Positions 274 to 28,782 of a DNA stretch of 64,000 nucleotides are shown piece by piece. Location of the stretch: assembly GCA_025336685.1 (NCBI GenBank), contig GCA_025336685.1_4717.1. One strand, given 5' to 3'. The stretch comes from Escherichia coli. GTDB lineage: Bacteria; Pseudomonadota; Gammaproteobacteria; Enterobacterales; Enterobacteriaceae. Under the pieces are notes generated by a model. The model was not told the DNA's origin. It saw only the letters and a list, made by a program, of their open reading frames with translations, and made no database searches. The stretch's first letter is position 1; the number at the start of each line of letters is the position of its first letter. A program made the translations under genes and the position numbers.

Positions 274-872
274 TAATTTTTGAAGCATGGGACATAAACC
301 TCCATCAACATCGCATAAAGCGCACCAAGCCCATGCAGGACTCGGTCAGGTGCAAAGGTTGGTGTGTAACATACTTGTTCGGTTGGTGCTTGTTGACGTA
401 AGTCTAACGGGTCTCCGTTGATAAGCATCTGCAGGAGATCAACATCATCTTGCAATGTATCCTCATCGATGTATGCATCAACAAAAAGCAATCGGTGTAA
501 CTGTTCCGGTTTAATTGAGATACCTACAACCATGCAGTTGTTGTAGGTGGCGTTGTCCAGAAAGAAGTGAATGACACCCGCTTGTGGATCGCCGTTGTAA
601 TGCAGCCATCGCGTAAAGCCAGCCGACATCATCCACAGCGGATTGTGTTGTAGCGCACTGACGACGCGGGTCTCGAATTCCAAACCGAACTTCTGGAAGA
701 TTGCGCCCATCTGGAAACGATCTTCATCGAGACGGTAACGGAATATACAAGCATCCGATCCCGTTGAGTTGTCGTACACCGAAAGATACCCACGATGGAT
801 TTCCACGGTAACATTGTTGTCGTCAAGCGTGGCGCTCGCAACACCGTTAGAAAAGGTTGGAACAAAGCTCAT
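273..872 (-). CDS. hypothetical protein (199 aa)
   Basis: ORF track; 4-nt overlap with upstream ORF 869..1420 suggests translational coupling in an operon. Confidence 0.5.
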   Translation of the reverse strand: MSFVPTFSNGVASATLDDNNVTVEIHRGYLSVYDNSTGSDACIFRYRLDEDRFQMGAIFQKFGLEFETRVVSALQHNPLWMMSAGFTRWLHYNGDPQAGVIHFFLDNATYNNCMVVGISIKPEQLHRLLFVDAYIDEDTLQDDVDLLQMLINGDPLDLRQQAPTEQVCYTPTFAPDRVLHGLGALYAMLMEVYVPCFKN

Positions 873-1420
873 CTTGTAATCCTTAATTTACCTGAATGAA
901 TTATCGTTGATGGGTCTACGACGCGACCGTATTTCGCATTGCGTAATACACGATGCCCGAAGAAGTCCGCGGTTTCCAAAACAACCGTGTAACAACCCAG
1001 CTGATGTTGGTGTCCCCAAAACCGTTCAATGGGGATCCAGCATGGCGTCATGCCTTTGTGTCGCCAATCCGTAACACAGCCGAATTCAGCAAACTGTTCA
1101 GTAAACCACTCGTCAATATCGGTATCCGTAAAGAGAAACACGTGGTTTTTAACCAGATAAGCGAACCCTGGATAAAAAAGCTGAGGGTCATCCGGGTCAC
1201 GAAGGTAAACACGAAGTTTGTCTAGCGTACCCTCGATAACGATCGTATCGGGTAATCCCGGCGGTGTGAACCGAAGTTGGAAGTTATCCTCGTTTGCCGA
1301 GGCGTTAACCAAATACCCCAATTGAAGGGGTCGATGCAATTCGAAAAGGTTAAACGTTAATGCATATTCGATATACTCTAATCCTATATTCATGTCTGAC
1401 CTATGTGGTATGGACGGCAT
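869..1420 (-). CDS. hypothetical protein (183 aa)
   Basis: ORF track; first gene of a minus-strand run, divergent from 1526..2770. Confidence 0.5.
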   Translation of the reverse strand: MPSIPHRSDMNIGLEYIEYALTFNLFELHRPLQLGYLVNASANEDNFQLRFTPPGLPDTIVIEGTLDKLRVYLRDPDDPQLFYPGFAYLVKNHVFLFTDTDIDEWFTEQFAEFGCVTDWRHKGMTPCWIPIERFWGHQHQLGCYTVVLETADFFGHRVLRNAKYGRVVDPSTIIHSGKLRITR

Positions 1421-21005: not shown

Positions 21006-21040
21006 GAGCAGGGGCATGAAGCCCCCTGCTCTTATTTAGC
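21006..21040 (-). terminator. hairpin terminator (GAGCAGGGGC ... GCCCCCTGCTC) with T-rich tail on minus strand
   Basis: Read directly; immediately downstream of the minus-strand gene 21032..22255. Confidence 0.5.
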
Positions 21041-22255
21041 GTCGTTAAAGTAAATATCAACAGCTCGTTCCGTTGCGTAGAGGAGACCAAGATTCACAGT
21101 CCCAACCACTTCCGGTGAACCGATGATACGGTTAGCGATACTGGTGCCACTGAAGATAGCATCAAGGGTGTGCCCGTCTTCGGTTTTGTTCACACCATGA
21201 CCCACGGAAGAGACAACGGATTTCGCTTGTGCTGCGAAGGTACCCTTATCACCCATCCCCGCACCAAGGTCGTAACGCATGAAAATACGGATGGCGATCT
21301 GGTTCTCGCCTAACGGATTACCGTCTATTCTCACGTTACTGTTGTTGATACGCCCCGTCGTTGCTTCATTGAGTTTCAGTTCCTTGACGCGTTTAGCTCG
21401 CGCTTTATCTGCGTCACCGACGAGCGCCGCCATGGTTTCACTCATATCCTCAATCTGAGCGCGGTACAGCACATCGATCTGTACAACTTCACCATGAACG
21501 TCAGCACGTGGGTTATACTGACTCATACGACGTAATGCTTCAACGGCTTCCTGACTCTCATCACTCAGATCAGTTGCGATCGGTTCTTCCAGTGTTGCAA
21601 GAATAGTTCGAGGTTCAACATGATCGCCGATTTTTACGAGACCACGAATGTTGAGATGGGCGTCAACAATGAGCGTGCGGCTCTTAATCGATGGTGTTAC
21701 GAGACGATCGGCAAGATTGTCGAAGATATACGAACTGTCCTCGTGAGTCTCTGGAATATCCAGAATACCGACAAGAGACAGAACACCTGCGCGCCAAACA
21801 ACCTGACCTGGGTTCCACCAGTCGCGTTTAAAATAAAGACGATGGAAAACTACCACATCTTGATCCTTAACGCGATCCCCAACTTTATAATCGGTAATGA
21901 GGTCATGCGGATAATACTTACCTGGTCCTTTCCCGATTATCGTACCGAGTTGGAAAACCTCTTCTCCTAACTCTGGATCATCGTATTGTATCGTAAGCGC
22001 AGTTTTGGTGACCTTCTTCACAACACCATCGCCTTGGGCGGCAGCTGCGAAGAGTTTACCAACGCGATGCGCGATAACGGTCTCGCCACCAGTACGCCAT
22101 GGTTGTACATCGTAACCTTCAGCAGCAATCATGCGGTTGTGTTGGATGCCTATAAATACGAGACGCTTTGGCGGAATCCAGCAAAATACATTTACTGTGC
22201 GTCCGGATTGTTCAGATAAGGTCGTTAATCTTATCCCGGAGGCGATGATAGGCAC
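21032..22255 (-). CDS. putative RNA polymerase beta-like subunit fragment (middle segment)
   Basis: 407 aa; GDKGTFAAQAKSVV resembles beta GDKxAGRHGNKGV and a following G-T-x-x-D-x-I segment resembles beta PVDIVLNPLGVPSRMNIGQ (weak, by eye); GTG start preceded by GGGAGG SD. Confidence 0.3.
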   Translation of the reverse strand: MPIIASGIRLTTLSEQSGRTVNVFCWIPPKRLVFIGIQHNRMIAAEGYDVQPWRTGGETVIAHRVGKLFAAAAQGDGVVKKVTKTALTIQYDDPELGEEVFQLGTIIGKGPGKYYPHDLITDYKVGDRVKDQDVVVFHRLYFKRDWWNPGQVVWRAGVLSLVGILDIPETHEDSSYIFDNLADRLVTPSIKSRTLIVDAHLNIRGLVKIGDHVEPRTILATLEEPIATDLSDESQEAVEALRRMSQYNPRADVHGEVVQIDVLYRAQIEDMSETMAALVGDADKARAKRVKELKLNEATTGRINNSNVRIDGNPLGENQIAIRIFMRYDLGAGMGDKGTFAAQAKSVVSSVGHGVNKTEDGHTLDAIFSGTSIANRIIGSPEVVGTVNLGLLYATERAVDIYFNDAK

Positions 22256-22483
22256 ACCGCCTCCCGCTTACGCTCTCACGTAAGAGCAGACTATATCACA
22301 TCTCGTCTTAGGCTTGTTTTCACAAGTCAAACGGTGCTTCTTCAGCACCTCAACGAGAGTTCACTTCTTCCCAGCGCATCCAGCGCCATTCTCTTATCCA
22401 AGGAGAATGCCTCACTCGAGGGGTACAGGGGGATGAATCCCTTAGTCGTTGAACCGTCACCCTAGAACGTTTCACAACGATCC
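22256..22483 (-). ncRNA. structured non-coding region between HNH gene and beta-like fragment (possible group I intron 3' portion)
   Basis: 228 nt with stops in all frames of interest; on the minus-strand transcript at least four short hairpins (GGUGCU-GAAGAA-GCACC, CUUGU-GAAAA-ACAAG, CUUACG-UGAGAG-CGUAAG, CAUUCUC-N-GAGAAUG); catalytic-core elements not identified. Confidence 0.2.
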
Positions 22484-23695
22484 TTAGGCGATTGGCTGCG
22501 GATTACCCTTGGCCTGCGGACCACGAACTTTTGTCGCGGTCAACTCTTCATTTTTAAAGCCTGCTTTACGAGCAATACGTCTCGCTTCTCGCACGTCTAA
22601 CGTTTCCGTTTCCGCTTTGGCTGAAGGCAGCATTGGGCGTCCTCGCAATTCAATGAATCTCGTCCATACGTCACCGTATAAACGGACCCGCTCTTTGTAA
22701 ACAGAATAGTAAATATAACGTTTTCCGTCAGGGAATTTAGTCATCCCATCGGACTTCAAACGGTAATTGAGTAACGTAGTAGATATACCCATTTCTTCGG
22801 CGCAATCAACGGCTGAAAGGTACAATAGCGGTACATCATTTTCAGGAATGACGACAATAGCACGTTTGTTGGTTGTCTTCTCCAACTCCAGGATACTATC
22901 TTCGACTTCCCGCCACGGCGTCTCATCAGTAACCCATTTAACTTGATAACAGCCATTAACGACAGGTTGGTTCTTGTCGTTAACGTACATCGACGCAGTG
23001 GGTAACTTAACACCAATGTGATTAGCGAATTCAGTCAATGATTCGAAAAGATGAATCTCTTTTGTTATCGTTGACCTTGCAATCACGCCCTTACTCCCCG
23101 TATCCGTCAACGTTGCTAACTCGTATTTGGTAGGAATACGCCACGGTTCATCGCCGTAATCTTTGCGGTACTGCTTACGTTCAGGAAACGCTCGCTGTTT
23201 ACCTCTATAGACACGATGATGAATGAAGTCGATATTCACACCAAGATCGCGTGCCGCTTCCGTCATGGATGGATATCTAGTTACAACACCGGTGTCAACA
23301 TCACGAACCTGAATAGGTTTACCGTAAGCAGCAATAGAACGTTTACGCATGTTCATAATGCGGGCATGCTGATTGTTCTCTTTCTGTGTAACCCATTCAA
23401 GATTGTCATTCTCTGTGTTACCGTCGGGATCAAGGTAGTTATTAAGTCTGTTGCCGTCCTTGTGGTTCACATGGAGCAAATGCGCATCATCGATGTTACG
23501 GAACGTTAACATTAGAAGTCTATGCATGGAACGGTAAACCAATGTTCCATCGTGACCTCGAAACGAATAACGATAATACCCAGCAATGATGATGGGCAAA
23601 TATTCAAACTTCGATTCCTTGTTACGCAATGTTCCATCTATGGATATCTCCAGGAACGGGAATTCCGGTACGGTCTTAAATACCTTCTCACTCAT
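22484..23695 (-). CDS. HNH homing endonuclease with NUMOD/IENR-like DNA-binding repeats
   Basis: 403 aa; HNH motif HHVNHKDGNRLNNYLDPDGNTENDNLEWVTQKENNQHA; three helix-turn-helix-like repeats (YPSMTEAARDLGVN, FESLTEFANHIGVK, YLSAVDCAEEMGIS); AGAGGA SD; own promoter-like motif upstream. Confidence 0.85.
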   Translation of the reverse strand: MSEKVFKTVPEFPFLEISIDGTLRNKESKFEYLPIIIAGYYRYSFRGHDGTLVYRSMHRLLMLTFRNIDDAHLLHVNHKDGNRLNNYLDPDGNTENDNLEWVTQKENNQHARIMNMRKRSIAAYGKPIQVRDVDTGVVTRYPSMTEAARDLGVNIDFIHHRVYRGKQRAFPERKQYRKDYGDEPWRIPTKYELATLTDTGSKGVIARSTITKEIHLFESLTEFANHIGVKLPTASMYVNDKNQPVVNGCYQVKWVTDETPWREVEDSILELEKTTNKRAIVVIPENDVPLLYLSAVDCAEEMGISTTLLNYRLKSDGMTKFPDGKRYIYYSVYKERVRLYGDVWTRFIELRGRPMLPSAKAETETLDVREARRIARKAGFKNEELTATKVRGPQAKGNPQPIA

Positions 23696-23735
23696 TGACT
23701 ATATTCCTCTTGTGCAGTGATATTAACTACACTTT

Positions 23736-23744
23736 CGTAATATA
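23736..23744 (-). promoter_or_regulatory. promoter-like motif GGNCTATATTACC (copy 2)
   Basis: Exact CTATATTAC on minus strand about 40 nt upstream of the HNH ATG, in the 75-nt gap after the 1069 aa ORF. Confidence 0.35.
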
Positions 23745-23770
23745 GCCTTAATTCTGTTTACATTGAAGCC

Positions 23771-26700
23771 TTAATCATCTCTATCAGCAGCAGGTACTGC
23801 AAGTGCTGATGTACTCATTATTGACGAGCTACCATCCGTTTTCTCGTCGTAGGGTTTCGTTTCACCGTATACAGACACAATGTTTGCGTTAGGTGCGAGG
23901 TAAGCAGAAATACCTACATCCCCACTATCCTTCGTACCTTCGGATACAACACCAATGTCCGACTTGTCGTATTCACGATCGCGTGCGCGTCGAAGCGATG
24001 TCTTTGAACGCCCCCCGATACCGGTCATCGTTGCTTCTTCACCCTGCTTGATATCCAGCATCGGGTTGGTTTCATCGATCACGATGGAAGCGCTGTCGTC
24101 GAGAATTTGGTTCCAGACACTCACTGGACTGATTGAGATTTTCTGGCGGTTTCCTTGACTGCTGTTCTCGTTTTGACGAATAGCGCTAACCAGGTCCTTA
24201 TACACCAGTTCGGCGAACTTATCGTACGTTTTAAAACGTTGGTAGTTCACATCGTTCGTGTTAGGTGCCCAGTCATCCAGAAGCAGTTCAACAGCACGCA
24301 GTAACAACATGGCGAAATCGGTAGGTTCTCCCATGTTCTGTAGCAACGTACGGCTCACCGGATCGATGAAAAGACGCTCCATGAGTTCAAGTTCGCGTAA
24401 ATGGCGAACCTTAAGTCCAGCACCATCGACAACGTTAAAATAGATATCTCGATTGTCAAAAGCACCGCGAGCGTAACCGATGTAGTTACGGTACTCGTTG
24501 AACCCACCCAACAGCAACGTCGTCATGCGATCGTCTTTACTGAAGATCAAACTTTCGTCGTCAAAGCTCACCGCGAATTCATCGGGTGCTAGACCCATAC
24601 GAGAGCCGCGAGGTACCGTACGATAGTTCGCTTTAAGGTGTTCTAATAACGGGGTAAGCCCACCCAGATAACTTAGAACAACACCGACCGGAATACGTAC
24701 ACCCATGAATTCAAGATCGGCGGCTTCGATCGGCATCTTAGCCGCATTGATACCGAAGAAATCAGGGAACGTCCCTACAGGTGTTGGTGTTTGTCCTGAC
24801 TGACAGATATAGAGCTGATTGCGTTCATCGATTGCTAAGAATTCACCCAACGTGTTACGTGCAAACGTCAGGAGCCCTTCGGCTAACTGTTCGTTGAACC
24901 GATCTTCCCCAATGAACTCCGGCAATGTCTTTATATCGAGACGTATATCCCAATCAGCGAATTGGATTTGGGTATAGTTGCGTGCAAGCACTGCGAAGTA
25001 ATACGGGACTTTGACAGCCGGATCAAAGACGTTACCGCGTTTTAACGTGGTTAAGGGTGAGGACTTATCGTAATACATCGCCGTAAGTTGACGTGTTAGC
25101 CAACGACCCGCATTATTAACGACGCGCTCTGAACGTTTAACAAACACCTTACCGTAGGCGGTACTCAATGCAACTTCGGATGACGATACCTTTCTAATAG
25201 GTTTATCGACGCGTTGTTTACGCATCCGGTACTTGATGCCGTTAACGACATAAATGCCGTCCTTACGAACCTTCGGTAACATCACCGGGAACGTGGTCGG
25301 GACACCGCCTACGGGGGCCAGTTTAATCGTGATGACTTGATAATCCCCCATCACGTCAACAACATCTTCGACTTTATATCCCGTGACTGGGTAACCTGCC
25401 TGCTGTACCGCAACAACAGCAGCTGCGATGTCCTTTTGCATTACGTGTTCGACGTAATGTTTATCCCACACCGCAAGCGTCGATTTACATAAGCTCTTAT
25501 CGACGATAACGTCCGCTTCCGGCATAACCTTTGCGGGAGCTAATTTCGCGGCTTTTGGTTTAACTTCAACATACTCAGCAAGTGTTAATCCAGAACCGTC
25601 GGGTGCTTCGATTTCATGGATGGCGTCAGCGTTACGCATCGCTGCTTTATATTGGACGCCACTTAACTGCCCCGCATCCGCCAGATCGCCCGCGCGTACC
25701 AACACCGCATCCGATAACGACTGAATATACTCACCGTGTGTTTTTGGTAACGTTGTCGCGTCAAAGACATCAACCTTTTCTTCTTCGGTATCGTCAGTAA
25801 CGACTTCGAAGAGATCGTCGGTAATGTCCTGATCTTCATCAGGTTGGAAATCCGGTTGTACTTCTACCCCGGGTACTTCACGGACATCTTCGAACGTGCG
25901 TTCTACAACGGCGTTCCATGCATCAGCGTCATCGTCTTCATCCGACCCACCGACCAACTCCGCTTCTAACTCATCGGGGTCAAGAACAGTGGCCAGATCC
26001 TCACCGTTAGGAAGCACGACGTCACGATCGTCGTACTCCGCATCCGGGTTGTCGGTAAGAATATCTCGCTCTTGACGAAGAACCTGTTCCTCTTCTTGTT
26101 TCTGTTCTTCTTCATTCGCGCTCTGCGACCACAAACGTGTTACCGCCATCATCCAACGACGTTGGAAGGTTTCAAGTGTCGTTTTGTCGAGTTCTTCCCC
26201 TTCCTTTACAAGCCCGGTACGCCATTCCTCCAGCAGGCCGAGATTCAACGTAAAGAAGTACACACCGTCTGTAAATACAACGTTAAGCTTATCCAGCGTG
26301 GCCCTGTCTAACGAAGCCATCGTGCTGTTCTCACGATCGGTTCCCAACCAGCGGAAGAAGTCAAAGAACGACAGCTCCTCCGGTGTGGCGAAATTCATGA
26401 GGTTGTTACGGGTCGGTGCCTGTTGTGTGGTACGCATCAACGAAATCTTCGGCAATGTTGACGGTAAACGGAACAACAAAAAGTGTTGACGATCGCTTTG
26501 TTGTGCGATTTCGTTGGCTTTCGACCAAATTGTTTTACGTACGTTGAACCATTCATCATACCAACGGGTGAGCGTTGGACGATAGATGTACATGTGGTTA
26601 AGATGCGCGTAGTTAGCAACGATCTGAGCGTTGATGTTTTTCTCCACCGTACTTAGATCGGTAACCAAACGAAAACGACGATGCGATGCACGATAATCCA

Positions 26701-26980
26701 ATTTCGCTCGTGGAAGTTGGAATCGTTGATCGCGTCGAGGTGCGCCTTGTTTGGTTGCGAGATCATCAGCAAACGAAATCCATAGTTGAGCATTTTCTTT
26801 ACTCAGCATGTATTCGTTTTCTGGAGGACCTATCAATGAAGGATCCGTTGCGGTGTAATGATAGACAGCATAACGCGGCAGCTGCAATAGCTGCACTAAA
26901 CGTAATCTTGGTGATAGTAGCTCTTGGTAGCGTCTGACACCGAACTGTCGGTAGTAATCAAGGTATTTAAGTTTTGCCAT
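23771..26980 (-). CDS. putative RNA polymerase beta-like subunit, N-terminal fragment
   Basis: 1069 aa; by-eye matches to bacterial beta: [17 protein letters not shown] vs [33 protein letters not shown] vs [34 protein letters not shown] vs YGFLETPYRKVTDG near the C-terminus. Confidence 0.45.
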   Translation of the reverse strand: [1069 protein letters not shown]

Positions 26981-26983
26981 GGG

Positions 26984-28630
26984 TTAGGCTCCACGAGGTC
27001 CCGTTAAGTTGCGTAATAGGAACGCAACCGTATCGTAACCAATATCAATGTTGAATTTATTTTTACCACTTACCCAGAAAGCTCGCTTCTTGTGCGAGTT
27101 GGTAATTTCGTCAATGGCTTCCATGGAATAAAGAACGTTAACCGAGACCGTATCACCATCAAAGTCCCCGCCAAGTCCGGCGAGGTATGGGGCAGGGACA
27201 ATAGTCGTTTCTACGAACGAAGCATTAGGTAACCAGTCAGGGTATTCCCATGCGATAAATCGTTCATCCGTTATTGGTTCCCAGTTACTATCCAGTTCGG
27301 TTTTCGGTTTTGCGGCGACGGTTGTACGCGCATAACAGGTTAACGGGATAACGGATTGCATACCCGATACCGGATAACGTGTTACCATTGCAGCCAGGTT
27401 ATTCCAGTACTTATATCCGGCGATGTACACTAATTCGGTATACGTGATGGGGTGAACATCCGCACCAGGTTTATTCAACATTTCTGGGGGTAATTCACTC
27501 ATACCACGGAACAGTCGAAACGAATCATTGTTCACATAGACGAGGCAAAGATAACGTCCATTAACCATGATAGGTTCGTTACGCACGCCTGGATCGCTTA
27601 AGGTGTTCAATAAACGTTCTATTCCGTCCCATGTCGTAAAGTCATCGATGGTGTCTGGATCAAGCGTGACGCGTTCACGTTCCATCGTTTCGGTATCGAT
27701 AAGTTCAACTTCTGTAACATCACGGACAAATATTTCCTGCAAAATCCCCGTACGTAACGCATGTTGCGTCACGGGTAGGGCGGCTTTGCTCATCTGGTAT
27801 AACCCTAACTGAACTGCAGTACAGGAAGGCTGGTTGGGCGATCCTAGTACCTCCGTTGTGGGGTTAATTGCCGAAATAACGTTACGGGTTGAGTTCCAAA
27901 CACGACGTGAGCCGAACTTCCCTTGAAAGATCCCTTTCTTACCTTGGAACATATCCAACAACAAAGCGTAGATATCGTTAAATGTTCTCTGTAAGCTCCA
28001 GCGTTGGCCGTCGTAAACGGGATCGGAATAATCTTTTAATCCATCGGGGACGGTGTTAGAAATTGCAAGGAAACGACGATACAACTCCGTGATTTCTTGC
28101 TCGCTTTCATACCCGCCTTCTTTTACTTCTATTTCACGTAAGCCCGCAGGTAAAACCAGTAAGTGACGGGTCATCGCTTTGAACATGTTCTCTTCGACAA
28201 CTTTAATTCGTAGCTCTCGTTGAGCTGAACCCGTTGAAACGAACTTGATATCCGCGACGTGTTGTGCAAAGAACCCGTACCCTGTCTGTCCTGTTAACGC
28301 ATCAGACGCAACGAAATCGCGTTGTTCAGGATCCCACCGAGCGTACGCCTTCCCCGACATGATATCACCATAGAGGTGTTTTAATCGAATGAGGCGGTCG
28401 TAAATGACAGGATGCAGGATTTCAACTTTGCATTCAATCACCGCAAATCGACGGTCTCGATCTTCACTACCTGCACTACCAAAGATGGTGTAAGAATAGA
28501 AACCATCATCGTGGAAATTACCGGTGCTTGGGTCACGAATGCTCATGCTCGTGATCTTGGGGAGAAAACGTAACTGTTGTTTATCGAGGTGTAAAATACT
28601 AATATTAAACGGCTCTCTGACTTTAGCCAT
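26984..28630 (-). CDS. RNA polymerase beta'-like subunit, N-terminal fragment
   Basis: Catalytic motif GDFDGDTVSVNV (beta' NADFDGDQMAVHV) near C-terminus; QGKFGSRRVWNSTRNVISAINP resembles beta' GKRVDYSGRSVIVVGP; ORF track starts at 28672 but ATG at 28630 has an AGAGGAG SD. Confidence 0.65.
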   Translation of the reverse strand: MAKVREPFNISILHLDKQQLRFLPKITSMSIRDPSTGNFHDDGFYSYTIFGSAGSEDRDRRFAVIECKVEILHPVIYDRLIRLKHLYGDIMSGKAYARWDPEQRDFVASDALTGQTGYGFFAQHVADIKFVSTGSAQRELRIKVVEENMFKAMTRHLLVLPAGLREIEVKEGGYESEQEITELYRRFLAISNTVPDGLKDYSDPVYDGQRWSLQRTFNDIYALLLDMFQGKKGIFQGKFGSRRVWNSTRNVISAINPTTEVLGSPNQPSCTAVQLGLYQMSKAALPVTQHALRTGILQEIFVRDVTEVELIDTETMERERVTLDPDTIDDFTTWDGIERLLNTLSDPGVRNEPIMVNGRYLCLVYVNNDSFRLFRGMSELPPEMLNKPGADVHPITYTELVYIAGYKYWNNLAAMVTRYPVSGMQSVIPLTCYARTTVAAKPKTELDSNWEPITDERFIAWEYPDWLPNASFVETTIVPAPYLAGLGGDFDGDTVSVNVLYSMEAIDEITNSHKKRAFWVSGKNKFNIDIGYDTVAFLLRNLTGPRGA

Positions 28631-28782
28631 GGAGACACTCCTCTTTACCACCACCGGCTGCGGCGGTATCATCTGAACACACGAGAGACGTAATGGGTGA
28701 TGGCGTCACCCATCGCTTCCTTGCTTGAGGCGAGGAAGTTATTAGGTTACGTACCTGCCTGATTTTATCAGGTGGGCGATGT

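Follow-up and report, generated by a model that had tools for sequence, protein, structure and literature searches.

The closest described counterpart of the locus studied here is found in the Pseudomonas phage PhiPA3, in which gp210 is an HNH nicking homing endonuclease encoded in a putative group I intron of the virion RNA polymerase (RNAP) beta gene (Birkholz et al., Science 2024; PMC11620839). That intron lies directly after two conserved aspartates (E. coli RpoB D675), and gp210 targets phiKZ gp178 around D1072, nicking having been shown on PhiPA3 gp211/209 and on phiKZ gp178 (PMC11620839). In co-infection, gp210 gives PhiPA3 an advantage (PMC11620839). Here we analyzed a 64,000-nt stretch of DNA deposited as Escherichia coli (assembly GCA_025336685.1, contig GCA_025336685.1_4717.1; hereafter the window), in which beta is, on sequence grounds and with high confidence, one gene into which a mobile group I intron (23773..22172, (-)) with an HNH endonuclease gene has inserted. 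The analysis, performed in silico, defines the intron boundaries, the ribozyme fold, the homology of the host gene and the endonuclease, and a co-conversion signature in the flanking exons.

The window and PhiPA3 gp211/gp210/gp209 share the three-part layout, the GAU GAU/ junction (the slash marks the insertion point here and below), an orthologous host gene, a related group I core with the open reading frame (ORF) in the P1 loop, a GUC guide, a GNRA-capped P2 and a homologous HNH/NUMOD enzyme. They differ in the host, which is Pseudomonas for PhiPA3 and E. coli for the Goslarvirus-like window phage, and their exon proteins are only ~33% identical. The window intron is also longer (1602 nt versus 1352 nt), has extra P5, P7.2 and P9 peripheral hairpins, and its endonuclease ORF, unlike gp210, which ends in P2, extends 224 nt into the ribozyme. 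The three-part layout and the GAU GAU/ junction recur in the Serratia phage 2050HW. The window element is thus the Goslar-group counterpart of the characterized PhiPA3 mobile intron and not a new kind of element or mechanism.

More distant parallels are the classical phage introns with HNH nicking enzymes (SPO1/SP82 I-HmuI/II, Bastille I-BasI and Twort I-TwoI, with T4 td/nrdB/sunY for the IA2-type core). Like the window element, for which splicing is predicted, these are self-splicing introns in an essential and highly conserved active-site motif, with an HNH/NUMOD endonuclease, exon co-conversion, and intron-plus, intron-minus and ORF-less alleles. They differ from it in the host gene, which belongs to DNA polymerase or nucleotide metabolism instead of a multisubunit RNAP, and in the location of the ORF, which is in P6, P8 or P9 instead of the P1 loop. 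In Aeromonas phage Aeh1 nrdA/mobE, an essential gene is likewise present as two ORFs around an HNH gene; however, that locus has no ribozyme and its halves are translated separately, while the window has a ribozyme and a downstream half without a conserved start. Jumbo-phage RNAPs are naturally assembled from split beta and beta-prime polypeptides. In the phiKZ non-virion RNAP (nvRNAP), gp71-73 is presumably joined by splicing, with the HNH gene gp72 in between; no paper linking gp71-73 to an intron turned up in a literature search.

Results

Host gene and intron boundaries

The ORF list of the window contains three minus-strand ORFs at this locus, of 1069 residues (23771..26980 (-)), 403 residues, and 407 residues with a GTG start (21032..22255 (-)), and the 75-nt and 228-nt gaps between them are as the first-pass annotation of this sequence had recorded. 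Its reading of the two outer ORFs was likewise borne out: a beta-like 13-residue segment occurs near the end of the 1069-residue ORF, followed by 19 residues and the stop codon, and the GMGDKG motif sits in the downstream ORF. Against the PHROG profiles, the upstream ORF matches phrog_3148 ('RNA polymerase beta subunit') at positions 2-1050, and the downstream ORF, trimmed to its real start, matches the same profile at positions 1051-1420. Because a single family is covered in consecutive stretches that split at 1050/1051, the two outer ORFs are evidently consecutive parts of one protein. This protein is 32% identical to phiKZ gp178 across 1419 aligned residues, a tblastn search matched PHIKZ178, and the gene order around beta is that of Goslar, PhiPA3 and phiKZ, with a beta-prime fragment upstream and virion/protease genes downstream. 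The host gene is thus assigned, by homology, as the virion RNAP beta subunit, the ortholog of phiKZ gp178, in a Goslar-like nucleus-forming (chimallivirus) E. coli phage, and the earlier claim of a mobile element residing in an essential transcription gene was correct. A Pfam scan gave no match for either beta piece, and phmmer against PDB sequences returned nothing relevant for beta; the assignment therefore rests on the PHROGs, the phiKZ gp178 homology and the literature.

Among sequenced phages, the closest is Escherichia phage Goslar (~95% nucleotide identity to the window), whose gp207 is a single uninterrupted 4347-nt 'RNA polymerase beta subunit' gene and supplies the related phage without the insert that the first-pass annotation had proposed to look for. 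In the alignment of the two, window positions 23773..22169 (1605 nt) stand in place of one GGA codon of Goslar. Requiring a U before the 5' splice site, a G before the 3' splice site and an intact reading frame leaves one solution, 23773..22172 (1602 nt); the suspected insert of roughly 1.5 kb is hence real and slightly larger than estimated. Its excision joins GAU GAU to CCA AAG and yields a 1448-residue protein that has the length of gp207 and is 98.4% identical to it without gaps. In Goslar gp207, the intron-less site reads GACCGTGACGAT followed by GGAAAACGT. Since this solution places the start of the 3' exon at 22171, the first 28 codons of the 407-residue ORF (22255..22172) belong to the intron. 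The exact break, which had been expected to emerge from alignment with beta subunits, falls in the conserved HDD/xKR motif and not between the beta-N and beta-C subunits: window D1069, phiKZ D1072 and the final exon 1 residue of PhiPA3 share a single alignment column (...[DN]DD/[PGM]KR...).

The first three intron nucleotides (23773..23771, (-)) are an in-frame UAA stop codon, as in L003 (a relative described below) and 2050HW; on unspliced RNA, translation would end right at the splice site. The 9 nt AUUAAGGCU form a direct repeat, with one copy across the 5' splice site (23775..23767 (-)) and the other 23 nt farther downstream, where the leader hairpin has its base (23752..23744 (-)); the repeat could be the scar of an ORF-cassette insertion, or chance. 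At the other end of the gene, the hairpin after the beta stop codon (21031..21006) has a GC-rich 9-bp stem followed by a T-rich tail, and matches the annotated terminator after Goslar gp207.

Alleles at the beta site and their flanking exons

Viral contigs were scanned with a 20-nt block of the core, which gave three relatives: Goslar, L004 and the metagenomic L003. L004 carries the same intron and endonuclease ORF with 96% identity. L003 has both exons and the 3' core with only ~130 nt where the window has ~1250 nt, and its beta intron is an ORF-less one of 461 nt at the same site (L003 10992..10532, (-)). Three alleles are therefore found at the beta site, namely empty (Goslar), intron with ORF (window and L004) and ORF-less intron (L003). 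The same three states occur in Moabitevirus, where Moabite is contiguous, 2050HW has the intron and the ORF, and Yaphecito has an ORF-less intron. Among phage records, 288 had a homolog of the junction segment, which was essentially uninterrupted in 269 of them.

Over the 120 nt 5' and the 30 nt 3' of the intron, the three genomes that contain it share 93-100% identity. These same flanks are only 63-77% identical to intron-less Goslar, a difference of 23-37% that is mostly synonymous, while identity returns to ~95% beyond them. Such a flank haplotype is the co-conversion tract that homing initiated by the endonuclease would be expected to leave when the donor is more distantly related.

Two short, ORF-less group I introns score below the Rfam threshold in the same beta motif, in Serratia phage Yaphecito (L008 ~670..1040; 37.5 bits) and in Vibrio phage BONAISHI (L009 ~665..1140; 37.9 bits). 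The BONAISHI intron is apparently shifted by one codon, to after Asp-Asp-Gly. In both phages, beta is annotated as two separate 'RNAP beta' coding sequences.

Ribozyme architecture and covariation

In a permissive scan, the full Rfam RF00028 model (1-253) matched 22267..22709 (-) with E = 5.9e-11 and 49.4 bits, and this was the only RNA-family match in the window. The covariance-model search that the first-pass annotation had suggested for the insert thus returned a full-length hit, and the second of its two readings, with the endonuclease ORF inside a group I intron, is the one favored by this match, the intron-less allele, P1, omega-G, the covariation and the published precedent. The window core contains the full set of classical P, Q, R and S elements. 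The relatives score 51.4 (L004), 54.0 (L003), 67.8 (PhiPA3) and 82.6 bits (2050HW). A 19-nt hairpin in the P8 loop, ACUUGUGAAAACAAGCCUA (22327..22309 (-)), is present in the window only and not in L004 or L003. Since these otherwise near-identical relatives without the insert score 51.4 and 54.0 bits, the insert probably accounts for the window score falling just under the gathering threshold.

The ORF-less L003 intron exposed the real P1 and the guide sequence. The P1 register is shared by L004, PhiPA3, 2050HW and a related intron in Goslar beta-prime, and the helices closing the loop differ in sequence among them. In the window, the ORF-bearing loop is closed by a long-range P1 extension helix whose two arms are each unique within the intron; the duplex has an energy of -19.5 kcal/mol against a control mean of -9.4, with none of 300 control windows as good. 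For the window, L004 and PhiPA3 alike, 0/300 control windows paired as well as the P1-region duplex. P2 follows the guide sequence directly, and omega-G is 22172, all six related introns ending in G.

Several earlier candidates were discarded in the course of modeling. The hairpin that the Rfam alignment first placed at 22705..22680 contained non-canonical pairs and was replaced by the long-range 12-bp helix. The first guide search, a whole-intron scan for complements of the exon end, gave many chance matches; from the guide candidates, GUCAUU at 22852 (inside the ORF), which has a look-alike in Goslar, was dropped when the protein alignment showed that the positions were not clearly homologous, and GUUAUAUUUA at 22719 was dropped once the ORF-less L003 intron had exposed P1.

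For covariation, seven cores were aligned (window, L004, L003 beta, PhiPA3, 2050HW, Goslar beta-prime and L003 beta-prime), from which RNAalifold recovered P2, P3, P4, P5, P5a, P6/6a, P7.1, P9 and P9.2. With the invariant P7 added, 90.5% of cells were paired, compared to 36-42% when the partners were slid by 1-3 columns, and 30 of the 56 pairs changed on both sides, compared to 4-11 when slid. None of 500 shuffles reached the observed pairing and covariation values. The P7 strands are invariant in the seven introns and thus uninformative for covariation.

The HNH endonuclease gene

The 403-residue ORF matches PHROG 59 (E = 4.7e-38) and, in Pfam, NUMOD1 (34.3 bits, cut-off 22.8), with I-TevI_DNA-bd at 25.8 bits, just below its cut-off of 27, and HNH_3 at 16.8 bits, below its cut-off of 24.8. 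Its best phage match is PhiPA3 gp210 (36.5% identity, E = 5e-47), and the catalytic His of the V-N-H-K motif, gp210 H82, falls in an invariant alignment column as window H78. The gene and its 78-nt leader lie in the P1 loop, which is closed by the perfect 12-bp helix 23762..23751 / 22707..22696. The ORF then reads 224 nt into the ribozyme (22707..22484, (-)), through P1', P2, P3, P4 and P5 and into P6, and this overlap gives the endonuclease a 73-residue tail lacking in PhiPA3 gp210 and 2050HW gp101. The 228 nt that had been taken as non-coding were measured correctly as a gap, but they are only a part of the catalytic core, since the last 224 nt of the HNH ORF overlap the ribozyme. In the window, the P5 extension crossed by the ORF tail measures ~130 nt; the ORF-less intron of L003 has ~72 nt of unrelated sequence there.

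The leader contains a hairpin with a Shine-Dalgarno (SD)-like sequence. Because the fold of the (wider) leader region was not significant (minimum free energy z = -1.73), we make no claim for translational control, and a regulatory role of this modeled hairpin would be conjecture. The promoter-like motif previously ascribed to the HNH gene did not hold up: sigma-70-like promoters occurred at chance (4 found versus 4.9 expected), and the site near the gene is mispositioned, as it would start transcription inside the ORF.

Alternative explanations

The first-pass annotation had also considered that a free-standing HNH gene invaded beta and left fragments of 1069 and 407 residues, each translated on its own, with GTG 22255 behind a GGGAGG SD sequence as the start of the second; the two would then have to assemble into a functional beta, as in Aeh1 nrdA/mobE. 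It is true that a GTG after GGGAGG opens an ORF into the 3' exon in the window, alone among the relatives, and split RNAP polypeptides are natural in jumbo phages. However, a full-length ribozyme core lies between the pieces, and the GTG and the 'SD' are the two strands of the P9.1 stem of the intron, which change by compensatory substitutions. The start is lost in L004 and L003, which have no in-frame start between the upstream stop codon and the 3' splice site, and in 2050HW a stop codon lies 3 codons before the exon. Moreover, neither Goslar gp207 nor phiKZ gp178 nor the PHROG profile has anything that matches the 28 additional residues at the N terminus. As the downstream part is not translatable alone in the relatives, this explanation fails, and we hold it to be very improbable. 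A similarly slim chance is left for the intron being a decaying, splicing-defective remnant in a beta pseudogene or a defective phage genome. The Rfam score just under the gathering threshold, the window-specific P8 insert and the overlap of the ORF with the core would fit such decay, yet none of the core elements (P, Q, R, S, P7, omega-G and the U.G wobble) is damaged, the two exons and the endonuclease ORF have open frames with 96-98% identity to the relatives, and the P8 insert forms its own hairpin within the loop. The gene is, furthermore, the conserved virion RNAP beta gene, whose phiKZ ortholog gp178 is required for viable virions (PMC11620839). An intein or other protein-level element, finally, has nothing in its favor beyond the position in a conserved active-site motif, and we discard it: a UAA stop codon comes immediately after the final codon of the exon, the HNH ORF begins at a start codon of its own and forms no in-frame fusion with the exons, and there is an RNA core.

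A mobile group I intron in a single beta gene accordingly stands as the reading we adopt, and the following points weigh against it. At the gathering threshold, the Rfam scan reported nothing for the window, RF00028 being 0.6 bit below the cut-off of 50. Only three base pairs of P1 involve the exon, and P10, at about 2 bp, is weak. The consensus structure was taken from the same alignment that was used for counting covariation, and the overlap of the ORF with the core could in principle disturb ribozyme folding. Even the PhiPA3 intron is called 'putative' (Birkholz et al. 2024; PMC11620839).

Table 1 Features of the beta locus in window coordinates, listed in the direction of transcription.
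Feature	Coordinates	Strand	Evidence
5' exon, beta gene codons 1-1069, ending GAU GAU = Asp-Asp	23774..26980	(-)	ORF; PHROG 3148; collinear with Goslar gp207; D1069 aligns with phiKZ gp178 D1072
P1 5' strand, exon G-A-U + intron U, with splice-site U(23774) in a U.G wobble	23773..23776	(-)	Same-register duplex in five related introns
Group I intron (predicted), 1602 nt, begins UAAGG, ends UUCCG	22172..23773	(-)	Replaces one Goslar GGA codon; excision restores frame; Rfam RF00028
5' arm of P1 extension helix UGUAAACAGAAU, closing ORF-bearing loop L1	23751..23762	(-)	Perfect 12-nt complement of 22707..22696
Leader hairpin 5' of the HNH start codon, holding SD-like AAGAGGAA (23711..23704)	23697..23747	(-)	Folds
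HNH/NUMOD homing endonuclease gene, 403 residues, in loop L1	22484..23695	(-)	PHROG 59; NUMOD1; PhiPA3 gp210 homology
3' arm of P1 extension helix AUUCUGUUUACA	22696..22707	(-)	Complementarity; duplex energy
Internal guide sequence GGUC; G22687 pairs with splice-site U23774	22685..22688	(-)	G-U-C a few nt 5' of P2 conserved in all related introns
P2 hairpin, GNRA (GUGA) loop	22664..22681	(-)	Covariation, 3/4 pairs; fold
P3 5' strand (UUCAUU), P4-P5 with long P5 extension, P4'; P and Q elements AAUUGCGAGGACG / AAUCCGCAGCC	22494..22657	(-)	Rfam alignment; covariation in P3, P4, P5, P5a
P6/P6a	22454..22495	(-)	Covariation; fold
R element/J6-7 with P7 5' strand GGUUCAACGACUAAG, peripheral hairpins P7.1 and P7.2a-c, P3 3' strand (AGUGAA)	22354..22455	(-)	Rfam; covariation; fold
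P8, including the window-specific 19-nt hairpin insert	22301..22358	(-)	Alignment; fold
S element/J8-7 with P7 3' strand GAUAUAGUC, and P9	22267..22297	(-)	Rfam; covariation; fold
P9.1 hairpin GGAGGCGGUG...CAUCGCCUCC, 10-bp stem, -17.5 kcal/mol	22238..22264	(-)	Fold; compensatory changes in L004 and L003
P9.2 hairpin plus the 3' tail up to omega-G	22172..22235	(-)	P9.2 covariation, 4/6 pairs; fold
3' exon, beta gene, 379 codons + stop, begins CCA AAG = Pro-Lys	21032..22171	(-)	PHROG 3148; collinear with Goslar gp207
Terminator-like hairpin directly after the beta stop codon	21006..21031	(-)	Annotated terminator at the equivalent place in Goslar

A reciprocal intron in beta-prime

In Goslar, the beta-prime gene gp205 is split inside the catalytic D/FDGD motif by a related group I intron with the HNH gene gp206 (L001 1774..3817). 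The intron is annotated as 'Intron_gpI' in NC_048170, and gp206 is 27% identical to the window endonuclease (E = 7e-13). This intron belongs to the lineage of the window beta intron, with identical R/P7 and S blocks, and the two further share the P1 GAU/GUC pairing, the ORF in L1 and the operon; they differ in gene and site, the beta-prime intron lying ~3.4 kb upstream and occurring in Goslar and L003. The window beta-prime gene (26984..28672) is uninterrupted, with the empty site at 27164/27163. The window phage and Goslar, 95% identical, thus each hold the intron that the other is without, ~3.4 kb apart, and L003 carries both, the beta-prime one at L003 14383..~14861 (-) with 64.9 bits in Rfam. 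The ~60-residue 3' exon of Goslar gp205 (L001 3818..~4000) is unannotated in RefSeq.

Discussion

In the predicted splicing pathway, the primary transcript would fold into a group I ribozyme in which the exon G-A-U, with its U.G wobble, pairs with the guide GGUC (22688..22685) to form P1, followed by the core P3-P9 with the peripheral hairpins P7.1/P7.2 and P9.1/P9.2. Guanosine-initiated splicing would then end at omega-G 22172 and join Asp-Asp to Pro-Lys-Arg, giving the 1448-residue beta subunit. By homology with PhiPA3 gp210, the endonuclease would nick the empty Asp-Asp site in the intron-less allele of a relative, such as Goslar, that infects the same cell; we infer this site specificity from the 36.5% identity to gp210 and the identical insertion site. 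Repair templated by the genome with the intron would copy the intron, together with ~120 nt and 30 nt of flanking exon, into the recipient, and the intron may in this way bring its phage a competitive benefit.

The locus also illustrates an annotation trap. With a score 0.6 bit under the Rfam cut-off, the intron will escape pipelines, which will report two 'RNAP beta' genes and an HNH gene, and the apparent SD sequence and GTG start codon of the second beta gene are an RNA hairpin.

For newly diverging chimalliviruses, a situation of reciprocal introns has been discussed only hypothetically (Birkholz et al., Science 2024; PMC11620839). Should both endonucleases be active and enter each other's phage nucleus by import, the window phage and Goslar might represent a natural two-way 'intron duel' between newly diverged chimalliviruses, a possibility we raise only tentatively and consider rather doubtful; double-intron genomes such as L003 would then be its recombinant outcome. 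The window element would extend the 'weaponised intron' of PhiPA3 gp210 to the Goslar group of E. coli phages, a tractable model. Within ~5% sequence divergence, this group shows the homing cycle in each of its three states (empty site, intron with endonuclease and ORF-less intron), along with a clear co-conversion tract and, one gene away, a reciprocal intron, and intron-mediated competition between very close chimalliviruses thereby becomes directly testable.

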